Shown here in pieces: positions 16 to 63,407 of a DNA stretch of 64,000 nucleotides. The notes under the pieces were generated by a model, which was not told where the DNA came from, made no database searches, and saw only the letters and a list, made by a program, of their open reading frames with translations. Where the stretch lies: contig JAIQFX010000007.1 in NCBI GenBank assembly GCA_020073005.1, positions 51,712-115,711 of the forward strand, written 5' to 3'. This DNA comes from Terriglobia bacterium (GTDB taxonomy: Bacteria; Acidobacteriota; Vicinamibacteria; Vicinamibacterales; CAVVIG01). The translations under genes and the position numbers were made by a program. Every line of letters begins with the position of its first letter. Position 1 is the first letter of the stretch.

Positions 16-64
16 TTCTGCCTTCTGCCTTCTAACTTCTAACTTCTAACTTCTAACTTCTAAA
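16..64. repeat. Heptamer tandem array (TTCTGCC)x2-(TTCTAAC)x4-TTCTAAA
   Basis: Read directly: strict 7-nt period over 16-64; the hypF stop codon (cta at 60-62, minus strand TAG) lies inside the last units. Confidence 0.9.
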
Positions 65-2390
65 TTCCCGCTTGGGCATCGGCGATCAGGGCTTGCCCAA
101 GCGCGATCCCGCCGTCGCCGGGCGGCACCGACTGCTGCAACAGCACCGTGTGCTCGGGCGCGAGCGCCGCGCGCACGCCTTCAGCGAGCCGCGCGTTCTG
201 AAAACAGCCGCCCGACGCCACGATCGGCAGCGCGCCGACCCGCTTCACCGTCCGCCGGACGACGGCCGCCGTCGCTTCCGCGAGCGTGTTGTGAAACGCG
301 GCGGCGATCGTCGAGACCGGTTCGCCGTGCACGCGATCCAACAGCGCGTCGCGGACGGCCGGCCGCAGATCGACCTCGCAGCACCCGTCGCGCTCGTCGA
401 GCGCGAAGCGATAACTCCGTCCCATGCGCGGATCCGCGGCCTGATTCCACTCGAGCGCCACCTGCCCTTCGAAGCTCGCGCGCGTCCGGCCGAGGAACAG
501 CGCGCCGAAGCCGTCAAAGTACCGCCCGACACCGCGCGCCAGCGGCGCCGGGCCGCCCGCCCGCAGGAACTGGCAGATCAGATCGATCTCGCGCACCGGC
601 ACGTCGCCGAGCATCTCCAACGCTTCCGCGGGCAGATCGCCGCCGCAGGCGTCGAGCACGAGGGCGAGCGCCACGCGCCACGGCTCGCGAATCGCGTGAT
701 CGCCGCCCGCGAGGGCAATCGGCCGGAACGTCGCCGCGCGCTCGAAGCCGGCGGCGCTCGCGACGAGAACTTCCCCGCCCCACATCGTGCCGTCGGTGCC
801 GTAGCCGGTGCCGTCGTACGCGAGGCCGATGACCGGGCCGTCGAGGCCGTGCTCCGCCATCGCGCTGACGATGTGCGCGTGGTGGTGCTGCACGGCGATC
901 TTGATGCGCTCGGGCCGGCTCTTCGCATACGTCGTCGACAGATAGTCCGGATGCATGTCGTACGCGATCACGTCCGGATGGACCTGAAGGAACGTCTCCA
1001 TCCGCGCGATCGCGCTCGTGTAGGACTCGTAGGTCTCGAGATTCTCGAGGTCGCCGATGTGCGGCCCGAGCCAGGCGCTCGCGCCCGCGCCGACGCAGAA
1101 CGTGTTCTTGAGCAGCGCGCCGCACGCGAGCACCGGGCGCGCGAAGCCGCGCGCGAGCGTGACCGCCCGCGGCACGTAGCCGCGCGACCGCCGCAGGACC
1201 GTGCCTCGCCCGTCGACGATCGCGACGACCGAGTCGTCCGCGCGCGTGACGATCTCGCGGTCGTGCAGGAGGAACAGATCCGCGATCTCGCCGAGCCGCG
1301 TGACCGCATCGTCGTTCGTGAACGCAATCGGCTCGTCCGACAGGTTGCCCGACGTCATGACGAGCGGCCGGCCCGCGTCGGCCAGCAGTAGATGATGCAG
1401 CGGCGAGTACGGCAGGAGGACGCCGAGCAGGCGATTGCGCGGCGCAACACACTCCGAAACGTGCGCGTTTACAGAGCCTCGTTTCAGCAACAGCACGATC
1501 GGCCGCTCGACCGACGTCAGCAGCCGCCGCGCTTCATCGTCCACGTCGACCAGCGCGGCCGCCGCCCGGAGGTCCTTCACCATCACCGCGAGCGGCTTCT
1601 CGTCGCGATGCTTTCGCTGCCGCAGAATTCGGACGGCGCCGTCCGACGTCGCGTCGCAGGCCAGATGGAATCCGCCGATGCCTTTGATCGCGACGATCAA
1701 GCCATGGCTCAGCGCCTCGGCCGCCGACGCGATCGGATCGTCGACGTCGATGAGACCGCCGTCGTGCGCGTGCAGCGTCAGCCGCGGGCCGCACACGGGA
1801 CACGCGTTCGGCTGCGCGTGGAACCTCCGGTCGGCGACGTCCTCGTACTCGCGCCGGCACGCCGGACACATCTCGAACGGCGCCATCGTCGTCGTCGCGC
1901 GGTCGTAGGGAATGTCGCGCGCGATCGTGAAGCGCGGGCCGCAGTTCGTGCAGTTCGTGAACGGATACCGGTAGCGGCGATCGGCCGGATCGAAGATCTC
2001 GCCGACGCAGTCGTCGCAGGTCGCGAGTTCGGGGGGAATCGAGACGCGCCGCTCGACCACGACGTCGCTCGGCACGATGACGAAATCGGTCACCGGTTCG
2101 GGATCGATGACCGTGAAGTCGAACGCGAGAATGTGCGCGGCGGGCGGAGGGAAATGCAGCGCGTCCATGAAGCGGCTGAGGCGGGCATCGTCGGCAAACG
2201 CCTCGATGGTCACGCCGGCCGAATCGTTCCGCACGCGGCCCGCGACGCCCGTCTGGCGAGCCGTCCTGTAGACCCAGGGCCGGAATCCAACGCCCTGCAC
2301 CGTGCCCTGGATTCGAATGCGTCTGCCCTGGACATGCTCACGCCGCTCTGAGCCTGTCGAAGAGCGCCCCTCCACCTGCGCGGCAGCCAT
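60..2390 (-). CDS. hypF: [NiFe] hydrogenase maturation carbamoyltransferase HypF
   Basis: 776-aa ORF from ATG 2390. It has an acylphosphatase-like N-terminus (IRIQGTVQGVGFRPWV), two zinc-finger pairs (CDDC..CTNCGPR, CPAC..CPVCGPR), and YrdC-like and Kae1-like C-terminal regions. Confidence 0.93.
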   Translation of the reverse strand: MAAAQVEGRSSTGSERREHVQGRRIRIQGTVQGVGFRPWVYRTARQTGVAGRVRNDSAGVTIEAFADDARLSRFMDALHFPPPAAHILAFDFTVIDPEPVTDFVIVPSDVVVERRVSIPPELATCDDCVGEIFDPADRRYRYPFTNCTNCGPRFTIARDIPYDRATTTMAPFEMCPACRREYEDVADRRFHAQPNACPVCGPRLTLHAHDGGLIDVDDPIASAAEALSHGLIVAIKGIGGFHLACDATSDGAVRILRQRKHRDEKPLAVMVKDLRAAAALVDVDDEARRLLTSVERPIVLLLKRGSVNAHVSECVAPRNRLLGVLLPYSPLHHLLLADAGRPLVMTSGNLSDEPIAFTNDDAVTRLGEIADLFLLHDREIVTRADDSVVAIVDGRGTVLRRSRGYVPRAVTLARGFARPVLACGALLKNTFCVGAGASAWLGPHIGDLENLETYESYTSAIARMETFLQVHPDVIAYDMHPDYLSTTYAKSRPERIKIAVQHHHAHIVSAMAEHGLDGPVIGLAYDGTGYGTDGTMWGGEVLVASAAGFERAATFRPIALAGGDHAIREPWRVALALVLDACGGDLPAEALEMLGDVPVREIDLICQFLRAGGPAPLARGVGRYFDGFGALFLGRTRASFEGQVALEWNQAADPRMGRSYRFALDERDGCCEVDLRPAVRDALLDRVHGEPVSTIAAAFHNTLAEATAAVVRRTVKRVGALPIVASGGCFQNARLAEGVRAALAPEHTVLLQQSVPPGDGGIALGQALIADAQAGI

Positions 2391-2490
2391 AATCGTGCGC
2401 CAGTACCGAAGGCAAGAGAACTGCCAGCGAGATTCGTTCGAATTGTGTGGAATTCGAGAGGGCGTGCCGAAAATCCGGCAGGAGACGAAT

Positions 2491-2525
2491 AGTCGTTAGT
2501 CGTTGGTCGTTGGTCGTTGGTCGTT
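2491..2525. repeat. Heptamer tandem array (AGTCGTT)x2-(GGTCGTT)x3
   Basis: Read directly; the array ends on the permease stop codon (tta 2524-2526) and lies about 100 nt upstream of the hypF start. Confidence 0.9.
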
Positions 2526-4872
2526 ACTCGGACCGCAGGACCTCGATGGGGTCGACGCGGATCGCTCGCAGTGCCGGGCCGAGCGTCGCGAGCAGCACGG
2601 CGCCGGTGAGAACGACACCCACGCCTACCCACACCCGCACGTCGAGTGCGTTGAGCAACAGGAGATCGCGCCAGACGGCGGCCGTCACCCACACTGTTCC
2701 GACCACACCAACAGCGATGCCCGCGATGACCAGCGGCGCGTCGCGCGCGACGGCGGTCGCGACAAGGCGCCGCGGATCCGCGCCGAGGGCCAGCCGTATC
2801 CCGAGCTCGACGAGCCGCAGCGCACACGACTGGCTCATCGCCGCGTAGACGCCGGTGAACGCGAGCACAAGGGACAGCACCGCCACCGCGCCAAGCACAT
2901 CGATCACGAACCACACGCCATCGCTCGTGACGCGCGCCTCGAAGGTGCTCCAGGCGTCGGTCGCGATGCCTGGCACAGCACGAAGCGTGGGTCCTTCGAT
3001 AGGTAGGGCGGGTCCTTTCGGACCCGCCGCCGTGCGCGCGAGCAGATACACGCTCGCCGGCCACTCGCGCGCGCCCACGATCCACACGTACGCGGCGGCA
3101 TCAGCCGTCCCGGAGATCGTCGACGCGAACGGATCGGTCACGACTCCCGTCACGGGAATCCACTCCGTCATGCGCGCGTCGACGGTCGCGCGAACGTGAG
3201 CGTCGCCGGCCAGGTCGCCGCCGAGGCATCGTGCCGCGGCGCTTTCGCTCACGATCGCGACGATGCCGGGTGCCACCCGTCCGCGCTGAAAGGCCAATCC
3301 GAGCGCGCTGAAGAACGCCGGCGTCACAGAGGCGACTTTCACCCGGCACTTCGTCTCCCCGGCCGGTGTTGCGACGGCGACTTCCACTCGCTGCTGGCCG
3401 CCGAGTTGCGGAAGCGTGCTCGACAACGCCGCGGCGTCGATGCCGGCCGCGCCGCGCGCCTCGTCGAGCAGGCGCTCGAACGCGCCGGCGCGCGCGGCCG
3501 CGGCAAGCGTCTTGCCGGCGGTGATCTGCGAGACGATCGCGCGATCGCCGGACGGCGGACGGCTCACGCGGCCGATCTCGTCGCCCATGCGCACGATGAA
3601 CGCGCTCGTCAGCACGAGGGCGACGGCGAGCCCGACCTGCACGACGACGAGCACGTCACCCGCGCCGTACTGGAACCGCCTGAAGATCGGCCGGCGTGTC
3701 CGGCCTGTCAGCGCCGACAGGACGTCAGAACGCGCTGCGGAAAGCGCCGGCCACGGTCCGACGCCGAGAACGGTGACGATCGTCGCGACACCCGCGACGG
3801 CCACCACGAGCGCATCCACGCGCACGGCGCCCGCGAGCGCTGGAATGGCGGAGGCGAGGGCGACGCGCAGCGCGGCGATCGCCCACACGGCGAAGATCAA
3901 GCCCGCTGCGCCGGCGACGGCGATCAGCATCGACGCTTCGACGAACGAGAGCCGCGCCAGCCGGAGCGGCGTCGCGCCGAGCGCCGATCGGATAGCGAAT
4001 TCGCGCCGGCGCGCAACGAGACGCATCACCAGGAGATTGCCGACGTTCGCGCACGCGATGAGCAGCAGCACGATCGCCGGCGCGACGAAGCCCTGCAGGC
4101 CGGGCCGAAGCCTGATGAACCCTTCCTGCTGGAGCGACCGCACGAGCGTGCGCGACTGGGCGAGCACGTTGAACTCCGCCTGCGCGTCGCTCCACGATCG
4201 TCCGGGCCGCAGGCGGCCGACGACGTCGACCGTCGCGTGTCCGTCGAGGGCGAGCGGCAGCCACACATCCACGCCGCGCGACGGGAACCAGAAGTCGTCG
4301 GGCATGACGCCGGCGATCTCTCGCGGTTCGGCGTCGAGACGGACCGATTGGCCGACGATCGCCGGATCGCTGTTGAAACGCTCGCGCCACAAGCGGTCGC
4401 TGATGATGGCGACGGTCCGGCTGAAGCCGGACGCCACGAGCCCGCCACCGTGTGCGCTCGCATCGGTGAACGGCCGGCCCAGCCGTGGCGATCGGCCCGT
4501 CAGCCGGAAGTACTCAGACGTGACGAACTGAACGTTGACGGCGACGCCGTCGGAATCGCCGAGAATTGCCTGCTCGCGCGCGACCGCGGTCAGGTTCGCG
4601 AGCGTCTGCGTGGAATCCTGCCACGCGAGAAACTCCGCAACCGACGCGGATCGATGACCGGCGGGCATCGTCTCGTCGGCGAACCAGACGTGGCCCACCT
4701 CGTCCGGCGCAGTGATGGGCGGCACGTCGTGAACGACGGCCGCGAACAGCGCGCCGAGCACCGTGGCTGTCGCGATCGCCGACGCAAGAATCGCGACGAC
4801 GGCGAACGCCGCCGCCGGACGCTTCAGGAAGCTCCGCCAGCCGAAGCGGACGTCCCGCCAGAAGGAATTCAT
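2524..4872 (-). CDS. ADOP-type (duplicated FtsX/MacB-like) ABC transporter permease
   Basis: Start taken at internal ATG 4872 (MNSFWRDVRFGWRSFLKRP...), about 782 aa. Two FtsX-like 4-TM modules with large periplasmic loops; C-terminus RAIRVDPIEVLRSE. The Arg-rich 125-aa upstream ORF extension is rejected. The start overlaps the hybD stop by 1 nt (TGATG). Confidence 0.8.
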   Translation of the reverse strand: MNSFWRDVRFGWRSFLKRPAAAFAVVAILASAIATATVLGALFAAVVHDVPPITAPDEVGHVWFADETMPAGHRSASVAEFLAWQDSTQTLANLTAVAREQAILGDSDGVAVNVQFVTSEYFRLTGRSPRLGRPFTDASAHGGGLVASGFSRTVAIISDRLWRERFNSDPAIVGQSVRLDAEPREIAGVMPDDFWFPSRGVDVWLPLALDGHATVDVVGRLRPGRSWSDAQAEFNVLAQSRTLVRSLQQEGFIRLRPGLQGFVAPAIVLLLIACANVGNLLVMRLVARRREFAIRSALGATPLRLARLSFVEASMLIAVAGAAGLIFAVWAIAALRVALASAIPALAGAVRVDALVVAVAGVATIVTVLGVGPWPALSAARSDVLSALTGRTRRPIFRRFQYGAGDVLVVVQVGLAVALVLTSAFIVRMGDEIGRVSRPPSGDRAIVSQITAGKTLAAAARAGAFERLLDEARGAAGIDAAALSSTLPQLGGQQRVEVAVATPAGETKCRVKVASVTPAFFSALGLAFQRGRVAPGIVAIVSESAAARCLGGDLAGDAHVRATVDARMTEWIPVTGVVTDPFASTISGTADAAAYVWIVGAREWPASVYLLARTAAGPKGPALPIEGPTLRAVPGIATDAWSTFEARVTSDGVWFVIDVLGAVAVLSLVLAFTGVYAAMSQSCALRLVELGIRLALGADPRRLVATAVARDAPLVIAGIAVGVVGTVWVTAAVWRDLLLLNALDVRVWVGVGVVLTGAVLLATLGPALRAIRVDPIEVLRSE
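4415..4432. repeat. REP-like hairpin GTCCGGC-TGAA-GCCGGAC (copy 1 of 3), inside the permease CDS
   Basis: 18-nt palindromic hairpin followed by GCCAC. A near-identical copy is at 42665-42682 and an inverted variant at 18959-18976. Here it encodes VASGFSRTV on the minus strand. Confidence 0.75.
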
Positions 4873-5393
4873 CACACGTGGCGATCTTGCCACCAGGGAG
4901 CCGGTCCGGGCTCGGCGTGCACGTGCGCCACCGGGACGCCGAAGCGGCGCAGCGTGCCGGCGATGACTTCGACGGCCGCAGGCACGGCGTCGCGCACCGG
5001 GTCGGTGAGTTCGAGCGCCATCCCTACGTCGCCGGGAACGACGCCCACGAGCACGACGTCGCGAGGGCCGCGGCCGGCGAACTCGAGCGTCAGCAGCGCT
5101 TCCTTCACGCCGGGATCGTGGGGACCGACGCGGACGGAAGGCGCATGGTGGAGGATTTCCTTCTTGTCGTACACGCGCAACGTGCCGGGCCGCGCGTCGC
5201 TCTTGATCGTGTCGACGATGATCACGGCGTGGGCATCGTAGAGCCACGGCATCATGTCGAGGCCCGGCGTGCCGACATCGACGACCTCGACGTCGGCGCC
5301 GACAACGTGCGTGGCCGAGAACTCGCGCACGACCGTCGGCCCGAACCCATCGTCGCCCATCAGCACGTTGCCGAGGCCGAGCACGTAGATCAT
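4872..5393 (-). CDS. hybD: Hydrogenase maturation endopeptidase (HybD/HyaD family)
   Basis: 173 aa from MIYVLGLGNVLMGDDGFG (conserved GNxxxxDDG region). ATGA overlap with the large-subunit stop at 5393-5395. Confidence 0.85.
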   Translation of the reverse strand: MIYVLGLGNVLMGDDGFGPTVVREFSATHVVGADVEVVDVGTPGLDMMPWLYDAHAVIIVDTIKSDARPGTLRVYDKKEILHHAPSVRVGPHDPGVKEALLTLEFAGRGPRDVVLVGVVPGDVGMALELTDPVRDAVPAAVEVIAGTLRRFGVPVAHVHAEPGPAPWWQDRHV

Positions 5394-7093
5394 CAGAGCG
5401 CCTTCACGTTCGCGATTTCGTTCCCCTCGACGTCGAGCGTGTGGATCGCGCAGGCGATACACGGATCGAACGAGTGGATCGTGCGGAGGACCTCGAGCGG
5501 CTTCTCCGGATCCGCGATCGGGTTGCCGACGAGCGCCGCCTCGTACGGTCCCGCCTGGTTCTTCGCGTCGCGCGGTCCGGCGTTCCACGTCGACGGCACG
5601 ACCGCCTGGTAGTTCTTGATCTTGCCGTCCTCGATCACGATCCAGTGCGACAGCGTGCCGCGCGGCGCTTCGTGGAAGCCGAAGCCCTGCTGCTCGCCCT
5701 TCGGGAACACCGGCTCGTTGAAGATCCGCGTGTCGCCCTTGCCGATGTTCTCGGCGAGCAGGCCCCAGTGCTTGTCGGCGAGCTCGGAGATGACGCACGT
5801 GCGAATCATGCGCGCGGCGTGGCGGCCGAGCGTCGAGTGCAGGACCGCGGGCGTGAGCGTGACGCCGGCGACCTTGCCCGCCGTCTCGAGCGTCTTCTTC
5901 GCCCAGCGCACGGTCGGCTCGTGGCCCTGCGCGAAGCCGACGAGCACCTGCGCGAGCGGTCCGACCTGCATGACGTGGCCATCGAAGCGCGGCGACTTGA
6001 TCCACGAGTACTTGCCGTCGGCGCTGTAGGGCGAGTACTTCGGGACGGTGTCTTCCTCGTACGGGTGGCGCTGCCAGTCGCCGTCGTACCACGAGTGGGC
6101 GATCGACTCCGACACGTTCTTCTGGAAGTACGGATCTTCGAACGACGCGATCGGCGTCACCTTCGCGAGATCGCCGTTGAAGATCGTCCCGCCCGGCAAA
6201 TCAAATGTGGTCGCCTTCGCATCGGTCGGAAGATCCGGCACGGCGAGGTAGTTCGTCACACCGGCGCCGTGCCCCAGCCAGGGGGCGTACATCGCGCCGA
6301 TGGCGCAGACGTCCACGAAGTACACTTGCTGGATGAACTGCTTCGCCGAATCCAGCAGATCCTTCACCTGATAGAGCCGCGCCATGTTCAGCGTGGCGTC
6401 GTTGTCCAGATTGATCGCGTTGGCGACGCCGCCGACGGCGAGGTTCTGGATGTTCGGCGTCTTGCTGCCGAGGATCGCCACCACCTGATTCACCGTGCGC
6501 TGGTACTCGAGCGCCTGCAGGTAGTGCGACACGGCGAGCAGATTCACCTCCGGTGAAAGCTTCATCGCCGGGTGGCCCCAGTACCCGTTGGTGAAAATCC
6601 CGAGCTGGCCCTTGGCGACAAAGCCGGCCAGCCTGTCCTTCACTGCCTGGAACTGCTTGCTGCTGTTACCAGGCCAGTCCGACAGGCTGGCGGCGAGCGC
6701 GGCCGTCTTCGGCACGTCGGCCTTCAGCGCCGAGACGACATCCACCCAGTCGAGGGCGGAGAGTTGATAGAAGTGGACGATGTGATCGTGCATCGCGTGC
6801 GCGGCGACGATCAGGTTGCGGATGTACTGCGCGTTGGGCGGGATCTCGAGCTTCAGCGCGTTCTCGACCGCGCGCACCGACGTGATGGCGTGCACCGTCG
6901 TGCACACGCCGCAGAAGCGCTGCGTGAAGAGCCAGGCCTCGCGCGGGTCGCGGCCGACGAGAATCCGCTCGATGCCCCGGAACATCTGTCCCGACGACCA
7001 GGCTTTCTTCACGACACCGCCATCGACCTCGACGTCGATGCGCAGATGCCCCTCGATGCGCGTAATGGGATCGACGGTGATGTGAGTGGACAT
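5393..7093 (-). CDS. hybC: [NiFe] hydrogenase large subunit, group 1 (Hyb-like)
   Basis: 566 aa. Motifs: RIEGH, QRFCGVCTTVH (N-terminal CxxC Ni ligands) and C-terminal DPCIACAIH, followed by a 15-aa tail of the kind cleaved by the protease. Confidence 0.93.
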   Translation of the reverse strand: MSTHITVDPITRIEGHLRIDVEVDGGVVKKAWSSGQMFRGIERILVGRDPREAWLFTQRFCGVCTTVHAITSVRAVENALKLEIPPNAQYIRNLIVAAHAMHDHIVHFYQLSALDWVDVVSALKADVPKTAALAASLSDWPGNSSKQFQAVKDRLAGFVAKGQLGIFTNGYWGHPAMKLSPEVNLLAVSHYLQALEYQRTVNQVVAILGSKTPNIQNLAVGGVANAINLDNDATLNMARLYQVKDLLDSAKQFIQQVYFVDVCAIGAMYAPWLGHGAGVTNYLAVPDLPTDAKATTFDLPGGTIFNGDLAKVTPIASFEDPYFQKNVSESIAHSWYDGDWQRHPYEEDTVPKYSPYSADGKYSWIKSPRFDGHVMQVGPLAQVLVGFAQGHEPTVRWAKKTLETAGKVAGVTLTPAVLHSTLGRHAARMIRTCVISELADKHWGLLAENIGKGDTRIFNEPVFPKGEQQGFGFHEAPRGTLSHWIVIEDGKIKNYQAVVPSTWNAGPRDAKNQAGPYEAALVGNPIADPEKPLEVLRTIHSFDPCIACAIHTLDVEGNEIANVKAL

Positions 7094-7101
7094 AAGACGC
7101 T

Positions 7102-7158
7102 CTCAGCTATCGGCTAGCAGCCCTCAGCTATCAGCTCGCAGCCCTCAACCCTGAAACC
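7102..7158. repeat. 21-nt (3x7) unit CTCAGCTATCRGCTNGCAGCC x2 plus CTCAACCCTGAAACC
   Basis: Read directly. It overlaps the last ~9 codons and the stop (7131-7133) of hybB and fills most of the hybB-hybC spacer. It shares CTCAGCTATCAGCT with the 27212-27332 repeat. Confidence 0.85.
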
Positions 7159-8357
7159 AGTCCGGGCGGGCCGGCGGCCACCGGCGCGCCGCTCAGAATC
7201 GGGAATCGCTTGACGATCGCAAGATACGCGGCCACTTCGACCGCAATCAGGCCCAGCGTGACGAGCGTCTCGAACGCGGACGGGAAGTACGAGAACTGCG
7301 GGCCGGGATTGAATCCGACCAGGAAGACGTCGAACCGGTACAGCGTGCCGGCCACCATCATCATCAGCGCGCTCAGGAACTGAATGCCCGGATCGCGCCG
7401 CCAGTCCTTCGGCGCCAGGAGAATCGCCGGCGTGATGAACGCCGCCATTTCGAGCCAGAAGAACAGCGCGTACCGATCGGGAGTGAAGGCGAGGCCGATG
7501 CGCTGGCGCGAGATCAGGTCCACGAGCCGCATGCCGACCAGCGTCGTGAGCACGCCGACCATGACGCCCGAGAGCGACGTCAGCATCTTGTGCTCGTGCG
7601 GCCGCTTGAACAGCCGCGCCGACACGGTCGCCTCGAACACGACGACCGCGTAGCCCATCGCGATGCACGAGACGACGAACATCAGCGGCAGCAGCGGCGT
7701 GAACCAGAGCTGGTGCAGCTTGCTCACGCCGATCAGCATCAGCGCGCCGAGCGACGAATGGTGCATCGTCGGCAGGAGGATGCCGAGCGCCATGAACCAC
7801 AACAGCGTGCGGTTCAGGAACGGCGTCAGCCGCTCCGCGATGCCGCGCAGCAGCGGCGACGTGCTGTCGCGCCAGCGCTCGATGAACGCCGGCGAGATCT
7901 CGATCCAGAGCACGACCGTATACGCGCTGATGCACAGCGCGACCTCGAGGAGGATCGAGTTGCGGTTCCAGTTGAGGAGGAACGGCGCTTTCCAGATGTT
8001 CCAGTACCGCCCGAGGTCGAGCAGCACGGCGAAGCCGGCGAGCGAGTAGCCGAGCGCGCTGGTCAGCACCGCCGGCCGCACGAGACTGTGATACTGGCCC
8101 TTGTTCAGCACGTAGCACAGCAGCGCGACGGCGTAGCCGCCGCAGGCGAGCGCGGTGCCGGACACGACGTCGTACGCGATCCAGATTCCCCACGGGTAGC
8201 CGTCGTTCATCGCCGACACGGCGCCGAGGCCCCGAAACAGCCGCCAGACGATCACGAGCCCGCACGCGCCGACGATGGCGAGCAGGGCGTTGAATCCGGC
8301 CGTGAAGATCGGCCCGCCGACCGGACGCGCGTCACCGTTCAACTCCGCGGCTCTCAC
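7131..8357 (-). CDS. hybB: Hydrogenase membrane subunit, NrfD/HybB family
   Basis: 408 aa with about 10 predicted TM helices. Position between hybA and hybC as in E. coli hybOABCD. GTG start in a GTGA overlap with the hybA stop. Confidence 0.8.
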   Translation of the reverse strand: MRAAELNGDARPVGGPIFTAGFNALLAIVGACGLVIVWRLFRGLGAVSAMNDGYPWGIWIAYDVVSGTALACGGYAVALLCYVLNKGQYHSLVRPAVLTSALGYSLAGFAVLLDLGRYWNIWKAPFLLNWNRNSILLEVALCISAYTVVLWIEISPAFIERWRDSTSPLLRGIAERLTPFLNRTLLWFMALGILLPTMHHSSLGALMLIGVSKLHQLWFTPLLPLMFVVSCIAMGYAVVVFEATVSARLFKRPHEHKMLTSLSGVMVGVLTTLVGMRLVDLISRQRIGLAFTPDRYALFFWLEMAAFITPAILLAPKDWRRDPGIQFLSALMMMVAGTLYRFDVFLVGFNPGPQFSYFPSAFETLVTLGLIAVEVAAYLAIVKRFPILSGAPVAAGPPGLVSGLRAAS

Positions 8358-9238
8358 GGCTGGCCCTCCTGGCTCTCTTCGGTCAGCTTTCTGTTCCTGA
8401 ACATCACCACCGCCAGCGCGCCGTAGAGCACGACCGGCGCGATGAAACCCTGATAGATGGCGTGCTGCAGGTTCTCGGTGAAGTACGGAATGGCCTGGTC
8501 GCCGAGCGCCGGCAGTCCGAGCGCCGCAAACGAGACGCTCGAGAGATACAGCACCTGCGTCCCGCCGGCCTCGTGCTCGCCGTAGACCGTCGGGACGTAG
8601 CGATCGGGTGACGCGGCGATGCGGTGATGCGCTTCACGCAGCAGATCGCTCCGCTTGCCGAAGATCACGGCCTTGCGCGGGCACACCGCCGTGCACGCGG
8701 GTTCCTTGCCCTCGGCGAGGCGATCGCGGCACAGCTCGCACTTGACGATCTTGGGCGTCGCGCTCGCCCACTCGAACTTCGGCACGTCGAACGGGCAGGC
8801 GACCTGGCAGTAGCGGCAGCCGATGCACGCGTCCTTGTCGTACGCGACGATGCCGCCGGCGGTCTTGTGGAGCGCGCTGAACATGCAGACCGACACGCAC
8901 GCGGGATCGACGCAGTGCATGCACTGCGTCTTCACGTACCCGTGCGCGTCGCCCGTGTTCCACAGCTTGATGATGGTCTTGGTGTGCGCGTTGAGATCCG
9001 TCGGCGCGTCGTACGCGGCGCCGCGAAGCGACGTCGGCTGCGGCGCGAGGCCGTTCGCGTCTCGGCACGCGGTCACGCACGCGCGGCATCCGATGCACTG
9101 CGTGCTGTCGTAGAGAAGACCGACGGCCTCCGGGTCGGGGCGCTTGGGCGGCAGCGCGGCGCGCGCCGTGCCTCCCGTCGCGGCGACGGCGCCGGCGGTC
9201 AGGAGCCCTTTGAGCGCGGTGCGTCTACTGATCGACAT
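8354..9238 (-). CDS. hybA: Hydrogenase 4Fe-4S ferredoxin-type subunit (HybA-like), Tat-exported
   Basis: Tat motif SRRTALKG. Four Fe-S Cys clusters (CIGCRACVTAC, CMHCVDPACVSVC, CIGCRYCQVACP, CELC..CTAVCP). C-terminal TM helix. Confidence 0.87.
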   Translation of the reverse strand: MSISRRTALKGLLTAGAVAATGGTARAALPPKRPDPEAVGLLYDSTQCIGCRACVTACRDANGLAPQPTSLRGAAYDAPTDLNAHTKTIIKLWNTGDAHGYVKTQCMHCVDPACVSVCMFSALHKTAGGIVAYDKDACIGCRYCQVACPFDVPKFEWASATPKIVKCELCRDRLAEGKEPACTAVCPRKAVIFGKRSDLLREAHHRIAASPDRYVPTVYGEHEAGGTQVLYLSSVSFAALGLPALGDQAIPYFTENLQHAIYQGFIAPVVLYGALAVVMFRNRKLTEESQEGQP

Positions 9239-12389: not shown

Positions 12390-12391
12390 AT

Positions 12392-12455
12392 GGGTGCCTC
12401 GTGCGAGGTGCTGAGTGCCGTGCCAGGTGCACTCCGCACCTCGCACCAGGCACCC
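12392..12455 (-). promoter_or_regulatory. 20-bp inverted repeat (1 mismatch) forming a leader hairpin over the cytochrome RBS
   Basis: GGGTGCCTCGTGCGAGGTGC (12392-12411) pairs with GCACCTCGCACCAGGCACCC (12436-12455) around a 24-nt loop. The right arm is itself a GCACCNN heptamer array. The element lies between the Hsp20 stop (12468) and the cytochrome ATG (12389). Confidence 0.6.
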
Positions 12456-12467
12456 AGCACCCTCGTG

Positions 12468-12914
12468 TCACGCAGCGATCTCGAGGCGCCGTTTGGTCTC
12501 TTCGATCTTGGCCATCGGCATCTTCACCTCGAGCACGCCGTCCTTCACGATCGCCTTCGCCTCTTTGGTCTTCACGCCCTCGGGCAGCGCGATCGTGCGG
12601 AAGAACGAGCCGTAGCTCCTCTCGGAGCGATAGAAGCCCTTCTCCTTTTCTTCCTTCTCCATCTTCCGCTCACCGCTGATGGTCAGCTCGTTGTCGGTGA
12701 GCTCGACTTTGATGTCTTCCCGCTTCATCCCGGGCACGTCGGCCTTGACGATGAACTCGTTGCCTTTCTCGAGCACCTCGAGGTCGGGCGTCCAGGCGAA
12801 TTCGCTGGACATCGTGATCGGCCGGTCGAACCCGAACCGATCGAAGAACGAGTCGATGTCCCGGCTCAGTCGCCTGAGCATCGGGAATTCCGGTTTTACC
12901 AGTGTGGTGTTCAT
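12468..12914 (-). CDS. Hsp20/alpha-crystallin family small heat-shock protein
   Basis: 148 aa. Alpha-crystallin domain pattern (WTPDLEVLEKGNEFIVKADVPGMKREDIKVEL...SYGSFFRTIALPEGV...GVLEVKMP). Confidence 0.9.
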   Translation of the reverse strand: MNTTLVKPEFPMLRRLSRDIDSFFDRFGFDRPITMSSEFAWTPDLEVLEKGNEFIVKADVPGMKREDIKVELTDNELTISGERKMEKEEKEKGFYRSERSYGSFFRTIALPEGVKTKEAKAIVKDGVLEVKMPMAKIEETKRRLEIAA

Positions 12915-12921
12915 GACTACC

Positions 12922-12956
12922 TTCCTTCTTCTGCCTTCTGCCTTCTGCCTTCAACA
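12922..12956. repeat. Heptamer array TTCCTTC-(TTCTGCC)x3-TTCAACA
   Basis: Read directly. It spans from the ADH stop (12951-12953) to 8 nt before the Hsp20 ATG. On the mRNA strand it reads (GGCAGAA)x3-GAAGGAAGG and provides the SD. Confidence 0.9.
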
Positions 12957-14066
12957 TTCCTGATCCACGCCCATTCCGACCAACGTCTCCGCGCGCGTCT
13001 TGTGGGCCGGGGCAGGATGCAGCGCCACCTTCAGCACGCCGTCGCGCTGGTGGCTGAACAGGTCGAACGCGGACTCGATGTCGTCGAGCGCGAAGTGATG
13101 GGTGATGAGCGGGGTGAGATCGACGCGGCGATGCTCGATCATCGCCATCAGCCGTCGCATCCGCTCTTTGCCCCCGGGACAGAGCGTCGTGACAATCGTT
13201 TGATCACCGAGGCCGGCGTAGAGCGCCTGGTAGGGCGCGACGAGCTTGCCCGAGTAGACGCCGAGGCTCGAGAGCGTGCCGCCGGGACGAATCGCGCGCA
13301 GCGCGCTCTCGAACGTGTCCTGCTGCCCGAGCGCCTCGATCGCCACGTCGACGCCGCGGCCCTGGGTCAGCCGTTTGATTTCCGCGACCGGATCGCCGTC
13401 GCGGGTGTTGAGCGTGACGGTGGCGCCGAAGCGGCGCGCGACCTCGAGTCGATCGGACATCGCGTCGATGCCGATGATGAGCGACGCGCCTTTCAGTTTC
13501 GCGCCGAGGGTCGCGCACAACCCGATCGGCCCCTGCGCGAAAACCGCGACGCTGTCGCCGACGCTGACGCGGCCGCGCTCGGCGCCGGACAGCCCGGTGG
13601 AAAAGATGTCGGGGCACAGCACGACGTCCTCGTCCGTGAGCCCGCGCGGAATGGGAGCGAGGTTCGCTTTCGCATCCGGCACGAGCAGGTACTCCGCCCA
13701 TGCGCCGTTGATGGTGTTGCCGAACCTCCAGCCGCCCAGCGCGCCGCCGCACTGCGAGTGCGATCCGTTCAGGCAGTAGAAGCACTGCCCGCACGGCGTG
13801 ATGGCCCCGACGATGACGCGCTCGCCCACGGTGTAGAGATCGACGAGCCCGTCACCGAGTTCCTCGATGACGCCGACGGGTTCGTGTCCGAGAACCAGAC
13901 CCGGCTTGACCGGATACTCGCCGCGCACGATGTGCACGTCGGTGCCGCAGATGGTCGTCGTCGTAATGCGGATGACGGCTTCGCCTGCGCGCGGTCTGGG
14001 TTTCGGCACTTCCTCGACGGCGAGGCGGTCCTTCCCCTTGAACAGAACCGCTTTCATCGTTTTCAT
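12951..14066 (-). CDS. Zinc-dependent alcohol dehydrogenase (MDR family)
   Basis: 371 aa from MKTMKAVLF. Motifs GHEPVGVIEELG and a structural Zn Cys cluster (CGQCFYCLNGSHSQC). GGAG lies upstream of ATG 14066. Confidence 0.88.
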   Translation of the reverse strand: MKTMKAVLFKGKDRLAVEEVPKPRPRAGEAVIRITTTTICGTDVHIVRGEYPVKPGLVLGHEPVGVIEELGDGLVDLYTVGERVIVGAITPCGQCFYCLNGSHSQCGGALGGWRFGNTINGAWAEYLLVPDAKANLAPIPRGLTDEDVVLCPDIFSTGLSGAERGRVSVGDSVAVFAQGPIGLCATLGAKLKGASLIIGIDAMSDRLEVARRFGATVTLNTRDGDPVAEIKRLTQGRGVDVAIEALGQQDTFESALRAIRPGGTLSSLGVYSGKLVAPYQALYAGLGDQTIVTTLCPGGKERMRRLMAMIEHRRVDLTPLITHHFALDDIESAFDLFSHQRDGVLKVALHPAPAHKTRAETLVGMGVDQEC

Positions 14067-14649: not shown

Positions 14650-14650
14650 C

Positions 14651-14965
14651 TCAGACGGCGCGGGCCAACGTCGCCTCGGCGTGCGTGGTCGACCGTCCGA
14701 ACAACCCGCGGCAGGAGCGCCGCTGGCAGTTCTTCCTCGCTGCTCGTCGCGACTCGCCGATCGAGTTCTTTGATGATCGCGAGTTGTGCCTTGGGCTTCG
14801 GCAGATGCCACCACGCAGGCAGATCCACGGGACCGATGCTGCGCTCTCATGAATGGCGGATGGCGGTGCCTTCTTCTTACAACTCGTCGCGAATACGAGT
14901 GTGGCCACAAGCGCGCACGGAGTCAGAAACAGGACCGGCGCACGGCGCTTCCAGCGCGATGTCAT
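14651..14965 (-). CDS. Possible small lipoprotein (uncertain frame)
   Basis: ATG 14965 gives MTSRWKRRAPVLFLTPCALVATLVFATSC (signal plus lipobox-like Cys). Downstream, a second overlapping frame (14643-14828) looks more protein-like, so a frameshift or a spurious ORF is possible. Confidence 0.3.
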   Translation of the reverse strand: MTSRWKRRAPVLFLTPCALVATLVFATSCKKKAPPSAIHESAASVPWICLRGGICRSPRHNSRSSKNSIGESRRAARKNCQRRSCRGLFGRSTTHAEATLARAV

Positions 14966-15014: not shown

Positions 15015-15048
15015 AGCACCAGCCACCAGCCACCAGCCACCAGCCACC
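15015..15048. repeat. Heptamer array CAGCAC-(CAGCCAC)x4
   Basis: Read directly; intergenic, ~50 nt upstream of the arsR-family gene. Confidence 0.9.
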
Positions 15049-15085
15049 TCAGCCGCGGCGGCCCCGTCTGGACAGCCGCGGTGCT

Positions 15086-15097
15086 TATTAGCTAATA
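15086..15097. promoter_or_regulatory. Perfect 12-bp AT-rich palindrome TATTAGCTAATA overlapping the regulator start codon
   Basis: Read directly. It is self-complementary and its last base is the A of ATG 15097. Candidate ArsR-family auto-operator. Confidence 0.5.
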
Positions 15098-15426
15098 TGC
15101 TAACTATGCAAGGACGCAAGCGGCCGCCCAACGCCGTCTTCCGCGCGCTCGCGGACGAGACGCGGCGGCAGATCCTCGATTACCTCCGCGCGGGCCCGCG
15201 CACCTCCGGCGAGATCGCCGACCAGTTCCACTCGAGCTGGCCCACCATCTCGCGCCACCTCGCGGTCCTGCGCGCGGGCGGCCTCGTCGTCGCCGAGCGC
15301 AAGGGCCAGGCGATCTACTACGAGCTCAACACGTCGGTCTTCCAGGATCTGGTGCAGCATCTCGTGGCGTGCATGAAACCGGCGCGGCGCAGCGCTCCGC
15401 TCAGACGCCGCGCGCAGGAGGCGTAG
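15097..15426 (+). CDS. ArsR/SmtB-family (SdpR-like) transcriptional regulator
   Basis: 109 aa. wHTH pattern FRALADETRRQILDYL...SGEIADQF..SWPTISRHLAVLRAGGLV. Confidence 0.88.
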   Translation: MLTMQGRKRPPNAVFRALADETRRQILDYLRAGPRTSGEIADQFHSSWPTISRHLAVLRAGGLVVAERKGQAIYYELNTSVFQDLVQHLVACMKPARRSAPLRRRAQEA

Positions 15427-42523: not shown

Positions 42524-42555
42524 CGATTACTCGATCACCCGATTACTCGATTACC
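42524..42555. repeat. Octamer tandem repeat CGATTACT-CGATCACC-CGATTACT-CGATTACC
   Basis: Read directly; non-coding region downstream of the lipoprotein gene. Confidence 0.85.
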
Positions 42556-42664
42556 CAATTCGGCGTTCTTCAGACTGGCTTCCCGGCGCGCGAATGGTGG
42601 CGCTGCGAGTGATTCCGCTGTCGCGGAGGATCGCTCGGCCAAGAGCCGCGCGCTGCGAATCATA

Positions 42665-42704: not shown

Positions 42705-42725
42705 CGCGGCCCTGAAAGGGCCGCG
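42705..42725 (-). terminator. GC-rich hairpin CGCGGCCC-TGAAA-GGGCCGCG downstream of the ACIII-like operon
   Basis: Perfect 8-bp stem with a 5-nt loop, ~23 nt past the ActD-like stop. The trailing sequence is only weakly U-rich, so the terminator role is tentative. Confidence 0.35.
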
Positions 42726-42731
42726 CTACGA

Positions 42732-42766
42732 GACTCCCGACTCCCGACTACCGACTAACGACTCGT
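42732..42766. repeat. Heptamer array (GACTCCC)x2-GACTACC-GACTAAC-GACTCGT
   Basis: Read directly; it overlaps the stop (42748-42750) and last codons of the ActD-like gene. Confidence 0.88.
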
Positions 42767-48637: not shown

Positions 48638-48698
48638 CGCAGAGACCGCAGAGACCGCAGATCACACACCTCACTCTGCGTGCTCAGCGAACTCTGCG
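48638..48698. repeat. 9-nt direct repeats (CGCAGAGAC)x2-CGCAGATCA followed by two inverted CTCTGCG copies
   Basis: Read directly in the spacer between 48729.. and the monohaem cytochrome gene; can fold into alternative hairpins. Confidence 0.75.
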
Positions 48699-61149: not shown

Positions 61150-63367
61150 TCGCCGCCGCGCCGACAGCCGCCAACGTCAGCCAGCTCAGACACACCAGCC
61201 ACGGAAACCCGAACGCGTCGAACTGAAAGTCGACGACGTTCGTGCCCGCATCCACGGGGACTGCGCGGAAGATGAAGTTTCCGCCCGAGAGCGGCGTCGC
61301 GCGGCCGTTGACGCTCGCGTTCCATCCGTACGACCAGCTGTCGGTGACCAGCAGCCAGCCTGACGTCGGCACATCAACCTGCAGCGTCAGCCGTCGCGGC
61401 TCGTACGCGACGACGCGCACCGTTCTCGAGTCGAGGCGTTCCGCCGCAGGCGCGGCGTCGAGCGTGGCGTCGCACGGAACGGAAGCACGCGTGGCCGCTC
61501 GAGGCTGATTGGGAGGTCTGTAGGGGAATTTGTAGGATTGGCGCATGACCTCCGGCGAGTGAATCACCAGCGGCGGCGCGCCGAGTTGCGCCGCCCGGGC
61601 CTCGAACGCCTCGAAACATCCGAGGGAGCGGCCGAGACGCGTGACCGCTGCCGAAAACCAGATCCGCCTCTCGCCCGTGGCTGACGCCAGCAGCACCGGA
61701 TCTTCCGCGTAGTCGTCGAACAGCACACCCGCCAGCGGGCTGTATCCGTGCATCGCCGGCGTCTTGGAGACGAACGTGAAATTGCCGCCGTTGTCCGGTA
61801 GTCGCATCAATCCGGCTTGACTCAGCGCCGCGAGCGGCCGATGCTCGCCCGCGACGGCGCGCCAGGCGGCGGACTGGCCGTACATCAGCGGACGGACGAT
61901 TACCGCGGTCCCCAGCGCGTCGACGACGGCGAGTCCCACGAGCGCGAGCGGCATGATGTCCGCTCTACGCTGCCAACCCGCGACCGAGGCAACGGCGACA
62001 AGGGCAGCGGGCGCCAGCCACGTCGCCCACGCATGCGCGCGCGCGATCGTCCGCACCGCCTCACCGTTCACACCCACGAGACCCAGCGTGACGGCGAAGA
62101 CGGTGAGCGCGGCCAGGACGCTGCATGCCGCGATCGCCACGAACCGACGCCATTCGCGGCGCGACTGCGTCTGCAGCGTCGCCGCCAGATCGCGGGCGCC
62201 GAACACGCTCAGCAGGCTGACGCCGAGAATGAAGTAGTTGCGGAAGAGCGCGGGGGCTCTGAAGTAGCGCGTGGGCGGAAACCAGTCGTACAACCAGCCG
62301 CGGAACGGGAGCGCCCTGCCCATCGCGGTGAGCAGAAACCCGATCGCCAGCGCCAGCAGCCACCATCGCAGTCCGCGCCGGCGGCCGATCACCGCCACCG
62401 CGGCCAGGATCGGCACCAGCGTGCCGAGGTACACGCTGCGCATTGCGATGTCCGTGTACTCGAACATGTCGACGAACGCGAAAGCGGGGCTCGCGAGCGT
62501 GAGCAGCGTGGCTGGATGCAGGGCGATTTGCCCGATGACCACCTCGCGCGGAAGCGTGTCCGTCCGCTGGGAATAGCCCGGACCCTCGACGAAGAACGCC
62601 CCATAGGTCGGCGAGAGCACGACCAAGCCAATCAGAAGCACGACGCCGTGCATCACGATCAGGCGCCGGAGCGATGAAGAGAACGACATGCGAGGCGTGG
62701 TGTCCTCCCACAAGACCCGGCCCACGCTCCACAAGAACGCGAAGCACCAATTCAGAAGGACGAGACCCGGATAGCCGGCGAGAGCCGAGAGTCCCCACAA
62801 CGCGCCGGCCTCGGCCGCGGCCCGGTAGCTGCCCGCGCGCATCGCCACGTCGAGGCGCCACAGCACGAGCGGCAGAAACGATATCGTCGCGAAGTGTGGC
62901 GTGTGTTCGGCTTGTCCGGTGTACAGGCCGGAGAACGCGAAGCCCAGCGCCGCGACCACGCCTCCCCACGCCGGCGCGCCGAGACGCCGCGCGAGGATCA
63001 ACACGCCGACGGGACCGAGCACCCAGACCGCAAGCCAGTACAGACCGAATCCAAGACGGCTGCCGCCGGAGACGAACGCCATCAGCATCACGAGCGGAGA
63101 GAACGCGCCCAGCTGAGGCTCGATGTAGTCGGGAGAGCCGCCGTTGATGAAGGGATTCCACAGGAGGAATTCCCCGTGGCGAACGTAGTCGCCGATGAGC
63201 ATGAAGTACGGGCCGAAGCCGTTCAGCGCGTCCCACACCGGCGACACGCGGCCGAGCAGGAGAGGCAGATGTGGAATCAGCGGGACCAGCGCGACCGTGA
63301 CCGCGGCGGCGCGCCACGAATCCATGAGCCGGCCTAGCAGACTGCTCATGCGTTCGTTCACGTCCAT
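61130..63367 (-). CDS. Large polytopic membrane protein (YfhO/GT-C-like)
   Basis: 745 aa, at least 12 TM helices, then a soluble C-terminal domain and a final TM. The family call is tentative. Confidence 0.6.
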   Translation of the reverse strand: MDVNERMSSLLGRLMDSWRAAAVTVALVPLIPHLPLLLGRVSPVWDALNGFGPYFMLIGDYVRHGEFLLWNPFINGGSPDYIEPQLGAFSPLVMLMAFVSGGSRLGFGLYWLAVWVLGPVGVLILARRLGAPAWGGVVAALGFAFSGLYTGQAEHTPHFATISFLPLVLWRLDVAMRAGSYRAAAEAGALWGLSALAGYPGLVLLNWCFAFLWSVGRVLWEDTTPRMSFSSSLRRLIVMHGVVLLIGLVVLSPTYGAFFVEGPGYSQRTDTLPREVVIGQIALHPATLLTLASPAFAFVDMFEYTDIAMRSVYLGTLVPILAAVAVIGRRRGLRWWLLALAIGFLLTAMGRALPFRGWLYDWFPPTRYFRAPALFRNYFILGVSLLSVFGARDLAATLQTQSRREWRRFVAIAACSVLAALTVFAVTLGLVGVNGEAVRTIARAHAWATWLAPAALVAVASVAGWQRRADIMPLALVGLAVVDALGTAVIVRPLMYGQSAAWRAVAGEHRPLAALSQAGLMRLPDNGGNFTFVSKTPAMHGYSPLAGVLFDDYAEDPVLLASATGERRIWFSAAVTRLGRSLGCFEAFEARAAQLGAPPLVIHSPEVMRQSYKFPYRPPNQPRAATRASVPCDATLDAAPAAERLDSRTVRVVAYEPRRLTLQVDVPTSGWLLVTDSWSYGWNASVNGRATPLSGGNFIFRAVPVDAGTNVVDFQFDAFGFPWLVCLSWLTLAAVGAAAIIRPTE

Positions 63368-63407
63368 CTGCCTTTTGCCTTCTGCCTTCTGCCTTCGAAC
63401 TTCACAC
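63366..63407. repeat. Heptamer array ATCTGCC-TTTTGCC-(TTCTGCC)x2-TTCGAAC-TTCACAC
   Basis: Read directly. It occupies the whole 34-nt spacer between the ALDH stop (63402-63404) and the YfhO-like ATG (63365-63367), overlapping both. Confidence 0.9.

Follow-up and report, generated by a model that had tools for sequence, protein, structure and literature searches.

Heptanucleotide arrays in a respiratory gene region of Vicinamibacterales

The stretch of DNA analysed here, the window, comprises 64,000 nucleotides of a Terriglobia bacterium of the order Vicinamibacterales (GenBank assembly GCA_020073005.1, contig JAIQFX010000007.1, positions 51,712 to 115,711), and our subject is a set of short tandem arrays with a 7-nt repeat unit that lie mostly between its genes. 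GC content is 64-72% along the entire window, and Pfam matches place its genes in respiratory and redox operons, with HypF, [NiFe]-hydrogenase large subunit, NrfD-like and Fe-S subunits, an MtrB/PioB-like porin with multihaem cytochromes, FeoB, a CoxL/CoxM-like molybdenum hydroxylase, and an alternative-complex-III-like cluster (molybdopterin subunit, NrfD, and ActD). An ArgZ-like protein (40753-41994) has its nearest relatives in metagenome-assembled genomes (MAGs) that carry the label Vicinamibacterales or Acidobacteria subdivision 6; a groundwater MAG matches best, at 94% amino-acid identity.

Arrays were detected with Tandem Repeats Finder (TRF) and with a separate, uniform period scan (periods 2-15, at least three copies and at least 20 nt). 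Relatives were sampled as 80 Vicinamibacterales loci, 1.3 Mb in all, fetched around ArgZ homologues; together with the window they supply the 138 period-7 arrays (15 from the window and 123 from the related loci) to which the lineage-wide counts refer. Genes were called with a self-trained codon log-odds caller, trained on long open reading frames (ORFs) with high G+C at third codon positions, which is crude and under-calls (76% coding). Folding of arrays was compared with shuffled controls (z scores), and first-order Markov simulations served as the chance baseline for perfect repeats.

At every locus where the original prediction had placed a period-7 array, TRF and the period scan recovered one (about 16 arrays of 3-8 units, Table 1), with copy numbers of 2.6-5.9 and identity mostly 85-100%. 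For some arrays the detected extent is a little shorter than the one tabulated (23750-23788, 33502-33533, 41993-42024, 42732-42764, 45912-45957, and 63364-63396). The contacts that it had reported with stop codons (60-62, 2524-2526, 7131-7133, 23792-23794, 41992-41994, 42748-42750, and 63402-63404) and with start codons (33503 and 63367) match the ORF tables, and its description of one period shared by several sequence families is borne out by at least six unrelated unit families per 64 kb, most of them without G tracts. Two of its families need adjustment: the arrays grouped around TTCTGCC and TTCTAAC are present but the membership of ATTCCTA is loose, and the degenerate GCACCNN periodicity at 12436-12463 exists but is really the 3' arm of a 27-bp hairpin.

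Table 1. Period-7 arrays of the window, their setting, and their structure or comparison with relatives
Positions	Strand	Unit, copies, and detection	Setting	Structure and comparison
15-67	-	composite, sense (AGAAGTT)~5 then (AGAAGGC)~2.7; TRF (CTTCTGC x2.7 then CTTCTAA x5.6) and scan	whole 55-nt spacer from HypF stop (60-62) to following gene's ATG (2-4)	unstructured as RNA (z = +0.9)
2490-2530	-	sense (AACGACC/AACGACT) x5.9; TRF and scan	first unit includes AA of TAA stop (2524-2526) of MacB/FtsX-like gene; following start 130-220 nt beyond	unstructured (z = +0.25)
7102-7158	-	degenerate CAGCYNN periodicity, ~8 units, 21-nt period too; TRF	covers NrfD-like stop (7131-7133); ends 8 nt ahead of [NiFe]-hydrogenase large subunit ATG (7093)	identical across three independent assemblies
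12390-12466	-	hairpin, arms of degenerate heptamers GGGTGCC TGGTGCG AGGTGCG GAGTGCA and complement	spacer from Hsp20 stop (12468-12470) to next ATG	27 bp, -64.2 kcal/mol, z = -6.85; both arms 7-nt periodic
12922-12956	-	(GAAGGCA) x3.6; TRF and scan (12928-12952)	begins on TGA stop (12951-12953) of alcohol-dehydrogenase-like gene; ends 13 nt before Hsp20 ATG (12914)	unstructured (folding of 12905-12965)
15015-15048	+	(CACCAGC) x4.6, perfect; TRF and scan (15017-15048)	57 nt upstream of + strand gene at 15106; ~50 nt upstream of probable small lipoprotein gene, - strand; promoter-like match nearby at 15069-15098	
23564-23640	-	inverted pair, (CTGGTGG) x3.6 at 23565-23591, degenerate complement at 23618-23640	MtrB/PioB-to-FeoB spacer	long hairpin, -46.2 kcal/mol, z = -3.5
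23750-23791	-	(CAGCTGN) x5.6	starts 3 nt past TAA stop (23792-23794) of MtrB/PioB-like porin gene	self-complementary through CAGCTG core; z = -3.9
27211-27332	-	~36-nt CAGCTNN heptamer block in two direct copies 73 nt apart (27211-27242, 27284-27331)	directly 3' of multihaem cytochrome stop (27338-27340)	copies jointly fold into long stem, -68 kcal/mol, z = -3.75
32466-32516	-	sense (GTCGTTA) x4 then (GTCGTTG) x2; TRF	begins 6 nt past CoxM-like flavoprotein TGA stop (32511-32513)	other assemblies, where readable, have equal copy number; two short-read contigs break off within array
33502-33536	-	sense (TAGGAAT) x4.6; TRF	reaches into CoxM-like ATG (33503); 16 nt past CoxL-like stop (33550-33552)	
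40711-40748	+	(TGAACCC) x5	between DUF4159 stop (40694) and ArgZ-like ATG (40753)	unstructured; identical in L001
41993-42028	+	(AGGGTTY) x4.3; TRF	begins on ArgZ-like TAG stop (41992-41994)	four G3 tracts
42732-42766	-	sense gradient GTCGTTA to GTCGGTA to GTCGGGA	encloses final codons and TAG stop (42748-42750) of ActD	
45912-45960	-	abutting (GTCGGGA) x2.6 and (CCAGCCA) x3	within molybdopterin oxidoreductase gene (45393-47567), in frame; encode variable linker, residues 536-551	ortholog in L002: SHQPP retained, linker 9 residues longer
63364-63407	-	sense (AAGGCAG) x4.3; TRF	34-nt spacer from aldehyde dehydrogenase stop (63402-63404) to YfhO-like ATG (63367)	unstructured

A lineage-wide excess of period 7

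The uniform scan of the window returned 15 arrays of period 7, one of period 6, and none at any other period from 2 to 15. In the 80 related loci the same scan returned 123 arrays of period 7, against 13 of period 8, 19 of period 9, and 6 of period 5, with none at periods 10-13. TRF arrays of at least 3.5 copies, counted over these loci, the window, and L001 (a contig from another sample, 99.75% identical to the window), numbered 105 at period 7, 12 at period 8, and 15 at period 9. Among perfect repeats of at least three copies in the 80 loci and the window, period 7 accounted for 51 and period 8 for 4, where simulations gave none of either; period 5 gave 3 where 11 were simulated, and periods 10 and 11 gave none. 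The excess of period 7 is lineage-wide.

Array numbers fall geometrically with copy count (73, 42, 14, and 4 arrays with 3, 4, 5, and 6 copies, respectively), a fall-off that is predicted by a birth-death slippage process. After the arrays were masked, lag-7 autocorrelation in spacers stood at 0.285 against a baseline of about 0.27, and this residual excess implies that decayed arrays exist as well.

Placement relative to genes

Called genes make up 76% of the sequence, and 117 of the 138 arrays lie outside them, at a density of about 0.32 per kb outside compared with 0.019 per kb inside (about 17-fold). Spacers between same-direction genes hold 82 arrays (0.55 per kb of spacer) and those between convergent genes 22 (0.49 per kb), while divergent spacers are about three times poorer, with 12 (0.155 per kb); a further 16 arrays are inside called genes and 6 at a locus edge. 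Arrays are filtered out of coding DNA and of divergent-promoter DNA. The array at 15015-15048 probably lies between divergent genes, if a small ORF that the gene caller missed and that was recognised by reading the sequence itself (14650-14964, - strand), which encodes a lipoprotein-type signal peptide (…LVFATSC…), is real.

Many arrays begin 0-8 nt from a stop codon. Same-direction spacers of 100 nt or longer hold 55 arrays, of which 14 are no further than 6 nt from the stop upstream and a single one is as near to the called start downstream. Among all same-direction arrays, 24 of 82 lie within 6 nt of a stop, compared with 11 expected under random placement in the same spacers (maximum of 21 in 2,000 trials). 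The claim that arrays touch gene boundaries more often than chance is upheld in this form, for stops and across the lineage, but the arrays at 45912-45960 lie within a gene, and contact with start codons is largely a consequence of very short spacers in operons. In 46 arrays altogether, the first unit begins no more than 10 nt from a stop; their units are of many different kinds, and the commonest boundary falls 2 nt inside the stop codon, whose last two purines join the first unit.

The end residue of the ArgZ-like protein is the same with or without an array following it, and therefore the arrays do not truncate genes; stop codon usage at arrays does not differ from the background (p = 0.36, with the related loci L072 and L076 excluded), and the idea that arrays supply stop codons found no support. 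It had also been argued that 7-nt units containing a stop triplet, 7 being coprime with 3, would place a stop in every reading frame. The arithmetic is correct, but as a general rule or a purpose it fails: stops occur in all three sense frames in 22 of the 82 same-direction arrays (27%) and are wholly lacking in 40, and stop-adjacent arrays are no richer in stops than other arrays.

The arrays do not fit the description of phase-variable contingency loci. They lie after stops or in stop-to-start spacers, and none matches a promoter; in addition, the polymorphisms described below leave the flanking proteins identical, and the in-gene array of the window encodes a mid-protein linker.

Copy-number change and turnover

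The same arrays were recovered in independent assemblies from at least four samples (among them L001 and L083-L091), and period-7 arrays are present in short-read and long-read MAGs alike, which sets aside the concern that they are assembly artefacts. Length variation of the slipped-strand type, which the original prediction had expected, is visible when relatives are compared. In L084 the (TAGGAAT)n array at 33502 has gained one unit (+7 nt) together with one substitution, with the flanking protein identical, and in L090 and L091 the array at 42732 has lost one unit (-7 nt) between flanks that are 100% identical; five other window arrays are unchanged among contigs at least 99.3% identical to the window. 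Over a greater distance, L002, a locus syntenic with the window at roughly 85-88% DNA identity, has about 11 copies of TGAACCC upstream of the ArgZ-like gene, compared with 5 in the window, and the (AGGGTTY)n array downstream of that gene is missing from L002, where hairpins resembling repetitive extragenic palindromes (REPs) stand in its place. Unit variants also grade along single arrays, from CTTCTGC to CTTCTAA and from GTCGTTA through GTCGGTA to GTCGGGA, and the 3' flank of the ArgZ-like gene bears unrelated heptamer or octamer arrays in about 15 of 80 genomes. Arrays gain and lose whole units and turn over much faster than genes. They are ready-made strain-typing markers and one cause of contig breaks in short-read assemblies, several of whose contigs terminate within arrays.

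Several observations were made around the ArgZ-like gene. It stands between mutually reverse-complementary arrays separated by 1.25 kb, (TGAACCC)n on its upstream side and (GGGTTYA)n on its downstream side; the latter (41993-42028) matches the plant telomere unit TTTAGGG, probably by coincidence. The REP-like repeated hairpins of L002 (L002:11220-11310) carry a GTAG head (GTAGGGCGGGTCCTTTCGGACCCGCC), and many loci have small palindromes of a similar kind after the ArgZ-like gene. Upstream, the window has a 4-nt insertion relative to L001 (CCGC, 39965-39968) that breaks the DUF4159 gene, leaving only a 191-aa ORF (40119-40694) in place of the 296 aa encoded in L001; it is either a genuine frameshift or an assembly error. 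Elsewhere, positions 3893-8593 and 29511-36503 of the window match two contigs of one ENA assembly, ERZ27247940 (k141_452856 and k141_238217), and the window is therefore from another, or a more contiguous, assembly of that population. Directly downstream of the array at 32466, positions 32330-32400 (- strand) encode a motif resembling a protein-kinase glycine loop, GPYEILAPLGAGGMGEVYRARD, upstream of a Tricorn/PD40-like ORF (31227-32219), and may represent a truncated or mis-started kinase gene.

Unit families within and between genomes

Within one locus, 12% of array pairs separated by more than 500 nt have an identical unit (5.9% without L072 and L076), and units are shared 6-12 times as often within a genome as between genomes. 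Family members are alike only in their tandem units, with no flank similarity beyond them, and a mobile element with conserved ends was rejected on this ground.

One family is clustered in the str/S10 ribosomal-protein operon of L076 and L072 (L076:12060-20952, L072:12065-19760). Most spacers there are about 90 nt long and have the arrangement stop-(AGCTTCC)n-loop-(GGAAGCT)n-start, namely those of S7-fusA, S10-L3, L3-L4, L4-L23, L23-L2, and S3-L16; the lowest z is -6.2. The two genomes are about 96% identical, yet whole array hairpins of about 80 nt are present in one and absent from the other: the S10-L3 hairpin occurs in L076 only, and both arms are found at L23-L2 in L072 only. The L2-S19 spacer measures 84 nt in L072 and 2 nt in L076, and the pre-insertion junction (TAGCT, then ATG) has AGCT in common with the unit.

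A metagenome scan for (AAGGCAG)3 matched at least 120 contigs, of which 80 (L092-L171) were analysed. These have GC contents of 35-69% and hold 211 arrays of period 7, 9 of period 8, and 6 of period 9. One of them, L143 (46% GC), carries the composite of CTTCTGC and CTTCTAA that occupies positions 15-67 of the window. A Shine-Dalgarno-seeded origin of the AAGGCAG family was considered and rejected: a start lies within 45 nt downstream of 11 of 81 arrays, while a stop lies upstream of 44.

RNA structure and signals

Within the window, folded segments divide into structured ones (12390-12466, 23550-23660, 23735-23800, 27196-27345, and 32450-32525, with z from -2.9 to -6.9) and unstructured single arrays with z above -0.8 (1-75, 2470-2540, 12905-12965, 33495-33560, 40690-40760, 41985-42050, 42715-42775, and 63355-63415). 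No heptamer array of the window coincides with a terminator-like or sigma-70-like site, terminator-like sites are no more numerous than in shuffles, and intrinsic terminators and sigma-70 promoters were rejected as explanations. A search of the window against Rfam gave no match at the gathering score.

Two arrays of other periods were seen in the window. A period-8 array (CGATTACY x4.6, 42524-42560) is unstructured and lies between convergent genes, and L002 has a CGATTACY unit at the orthologous site. A period-9 array (CGCAGAGAC x2.7, 48638-48661) contributes one arm to a stable hairpin that has a U run after it on the - strand (z = -3.6), and is the sole tandem array in the window that resembles an intrinsic terminator.

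Origin and significance of the arrays

We favour, with somewhat better than even confidence, the view that the arrays are heptanucleotide simple sequence repeats (SSRs) of the kind known as short tandemly repeated repetitive (STRR) sequences and as the Xanthomonas-Nostoc heptamers: hypermutable and largely non-adaptive DNA whose placement is set by the constraints of gene expression. Slipped-strand mispairing would create arrays and alter their length by whole 7-nt units. Unit families would then spread within a genome through short-range ectopic copying, with microhomology-primed template switching between arrays, a step that fits the AGCT junction in the ribosomal-protein operon, the clustering of one family in one operon, and the lack of common flanks. 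Quasi-palindrome templating is an established mutational mechanism, and could give rise to the inverted partners.

A 7-nt unit shifts the reading frame, and arrays would be purged from genes, save as in-frame linker blocks, as well as from the promoter regions of divergent gene pairs. Next to a start codon, presumably only purine-rich, unstructured arrays compatible with ribosome binding persist. The 3' flank, being the least constrained transcribed DNA, would be where arrays are drawn flush with the stop, and deletions between array and stop through purine microhomology in the stop codon (AA, AG, or GA) would be free of cost. Some arrays may subsequently have been co-opted as intercistronic hairpins or unstructured leaders.

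Several observations weigh against this account. One is the quality of the annotation, in which stop codons are reliable, start codons less so, and the "intergenic" class is noisy. Moreover, the template-switching and deletion-ratchet steps are ones that we infer. Identical units recur across different loci in 0.97% of pairs compared with 0.14% for random heptamers, about 7 times the random rate, and particular unit families recur across phyla. Arrays also fill most spacers of a ribosomal-protein operon, where junk should be costly. The strand bias is a further difficulty, not being predicted by a purely DNA-symmetric mutational process: with L072 and L076 excluded, G outnumbers C on the sense strand of 25 stop-adjacent arrays, against 10 (Wilcoxon p = 9e-5), and that strand is purine-rich in 29 against 7. 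When the bias was re-tested without gene calls, a long ORF ended within 30 nt upstream in the G-rich orientation of 69 arrays against 40 in Vicinamibacterales, and of 29 against 10 in metagenome contigs; in the analysed (AAGGCAG)n contigs, an ORF end lies within 45 nt upstream in the sense orientation for 44 of 81 and in the opposite orientation for 14. Of 18 arrays no more than 20 nt from a start, 16 have a purine-rich sense strand. Finally, an inverted partner array lies no further than 200 nt from 42 of the 138 arrays (about 30%), against about one expected, and these pairs fold into long hairpins. The favoured account does not fully explain how large the sense-strand G bias is, why particular units recur across phyla, or the choice of 7.

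The strand biases and the inverted partners are the strength of a reading at the RNA level, which we regard as possible but doubtful. Here the arrays would be transcribed cis-elements placed after stops or between cistrons, whose unstructured G-rich or purine-rich tracts hold or re-recruit ribosomes or exclude Rho; in a variant of the same reading, paired arrays would be intercistronic hairpins that govern mRNA stability, processing, or translational coupling. The G and purine bias of the sense strand at stops and starts, the very stable stop-hairpin-start structures and their use in most spacers of the L072/L076 ribosomal-protein operon are what such a function would lead one to expect, and a precedent has been proposed for TAACTGA repeats (PMC4679880). 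Polarity, however, is inconsistent, with the purine arm 3' in L072/L076 and the G-rich arm 5' at 12390-12466 and in other genomes, and the hairpins are gained and lost between genomes that are 96% identical; for these reasons translational-coupling hairpins were rejected as a general model. Half of the window arrays are unstructured singles, one family can stand in either orientation (as at 2490 and 32466), and U-tract terminators were not found at heptamer arrays. Rho avoidance, under which C-rich arrays should be tolerated only when paired, was likewise rejected, C-rich singles being not significantly rarer than G-rich ones (21 compared with 36, p = 0.06).

A specific mechanism acting where translation ends and transcription continues, such as R-loop-driven or enzyme-templated synthesis on the G-rich sense strand, seems to us unlikely. 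If true, it would make the arrays a cross-phylum form of RNA-level punctuation, comprising post-stop purine tracts and intercistronic hairpins, and would account for the favoured bacterial period of 7.

Slightly less probable still is a dedicated dispersal or synthesis system, in which a lineage-encoded enzyme or mobile system (a transposase like the REP-associated tyrosine transposases (RAYTs), a templated polymerase, or a reverse transcriptase) inserts or extends specific heptamer families at gene 3' ends. Such a system would explain genome-specific repertoires and a single fixed period, and is consistent with the excess of unit sharing within genomes, the insertion and deletion of entire modules between close relatives, and the finding of AAGGCAG and of the CTTCTGC plus CTTCTAA composite in contigs of 35-69% GC (80 of at least 120). 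The 3'-flank distribution also resembles that of REP elements, and GTAG-headed REP-like hairpins occur in the lineage. Yet nothing conserved surrounds family members, whether flanks, termini, or target duplications; the analysis brought up no candidate gene, arrays occur in frame within genes too, and one-unit steps with geometric length decay require slippage alone.

We consider it very improbable that the arrays exist for DNA structure or protein binding, as G-quadruplexes or i-motifs, as nucleoid-protein sites, or by helical phasing (three units making 21 bp, or two turns). G3 tracts in at least four copies are present in AGGGTTY (41993) and on the complementary strand of TGAACCC (40711), with GGGATTY, AGGGCTC, and GGGGCTT in relatives; quadruplexes have been demonstrated for Xanthomonas and Nostoc heptamers (PMC4692102), and TRF reports 21-nt periods at two window arrays. 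Most families nevertheless have no G tracts (GAAGGCA, GTCGTTA, CCAGCCA, and CAGCTGN), no copy number such as four is favoured, and the bias follows the direction of transcription. Lastly, an origin by chance or as an assembly or polishing artefact is practically negligible: certain short-read contigs do end within arrays, but identical arrays recur in independent assemblies and across sequencing types, and simulations yielded no period-7 arrays of three or more perfect copies.

Comparison with known heptamer repeats

The arrays belong to a kind of repeat that is already published; what is new is the phylum-level lineage, the many families per genome, and the frequency of array hairpins. The original prediction held that such repeats were undescribed for this type of genome, and our literature search found no description of them for Vicinamibacterales or Acidobacteriota, but the phenomenon itself has been reported (PMC4692102, PMC4060949, PMC4679880). 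Over-representation of heptamer SSRs in prokaryotes was described by Mrazek, Guo and Shah in 2007, as cited in PMC4692102. In the survey by Huang and Mrazek (2014, PMC4060949), no other SSR class reaches a positive median in as many phyla as 7n3 does (Planctomycetes 2.0, Chloroflexi 1.0, and Deferribacteres 1.0, with Bacteroidetes and Verrucomicrobia positive too). Vicinamibacterales share this pattern, with period 7 foremost among non-triplet periods and mainly outside genes. The Acidobacteria were scored as normal in 2014 (median 0.00, from four genera, none of them Vicinamibacterales), and Vicinamibacterales are therefore a new case within the phylum.

REPs are built from one conserved imperfect palindrome of 20-40 nt with a GTAG-type head, and are mobilised by RAYT transposases. 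The present arrays resemble REPs and their composite forms, the bacterial interspersed mosaic elements, in having small genome-specific families at gene 3' ends and in operons, in being rare between divergent genes, and in often forming hairpins. They differ in what is repeated, a tandem 7-nt unit, in the lack of an inverted partner for 70% of arrays, and in having no conserved element body.

The cyanobacterial STRR sequences, which the original prediction had named as the closest analogue, are a fair comparison: there too several heptamer families per genome are tandem, non-coding, and dispersed. The STRR1-3 units are CCCCAGT, TTGGTCA, and CAACAGT, and arrays of these three were not found in the window or the Vicinamibacterales loci. 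In the strict sense the present arrays are not STRRs, having other units and a high-GC, non-cyanobacterial host. Three tandemly repetitive heptanucleotides were described in Calothrix PCC 7601 by Mazel et al. in 1990, as cited in PMC4692102.

Another parallel is provided by the TAACTGA direct repeats of marine Beggiatoaceae, cyanobacteria, and Bacteroidetes, which are intergenic, with 2-6 or more copies, many of them directly upstream of starts in a fixed orientation, and which occur in ribosomal-protein operons (upstream of fusA and L3; MacGregor 2015, PMC4679880). Intergenic heptamers, ribosomal-protein operons, and recurrence of a unit in distant phyla are common to both systems, whereas TAACTGA is a single, mainly start-proximal family and the arrays described here form many, mainly stop-proximal ones; TAACTGA itself is nearly absent from the related loci.

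The closest correspondence is with the heptamers of Xanthomonas (GGGAATC) and Nostoc (GGGGAYT), described in PMC4692102. About 90% of these are intergenic, mostly between same-direction genes and under-represented between divergent ones; they lie on average 28 nt from the upstream ORF end, far nearer than to the next start, with the G-rich strand being the coding strand when downstream of an ORF; some form inverted pairs, length and sequence vary among close relatives, and their function is described as still to be elucidated. Proximity to the upstream ORF end, a G-rich sense strand, depletion between divergent genes, copy-number variation, and inverted pairs are all shared with the arrays of Vicinamibacterales, which belong to another phylum and have many families and no preferred size, where Xanthomonas and Nostoc each have a single dominant G-tract family that favours four units. 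The Xanthomonas arrays are transcribed, as shown by RNA sequencing (Rehm et al. 2015, PMC4692102), and those of Vicinamibacterales, from their location inside operons, are likely to be transcribed as well.

Knowledge of heptanucleotide repeats goes back to 1990 for cyanobacteria and to 2007 for genomes at large. Vicinamibacterales, which abound in soil and groundwater, are represented by hundreds of MAGs, among them several closed long-read assemblies, and they offer a rich natural experiment in which many unit families, singles and hairpin pairs, arrays in ribosomal-protein operons, and unit-by-unit strain polymorphism occur together. Stop anchoring and the sense-strand G bias, seen here in Vicinamibacterales and in contigs of 35-69% GC, are of the kind published for Xanthomonas and Nostoc, and any explanation must cover this general rule.

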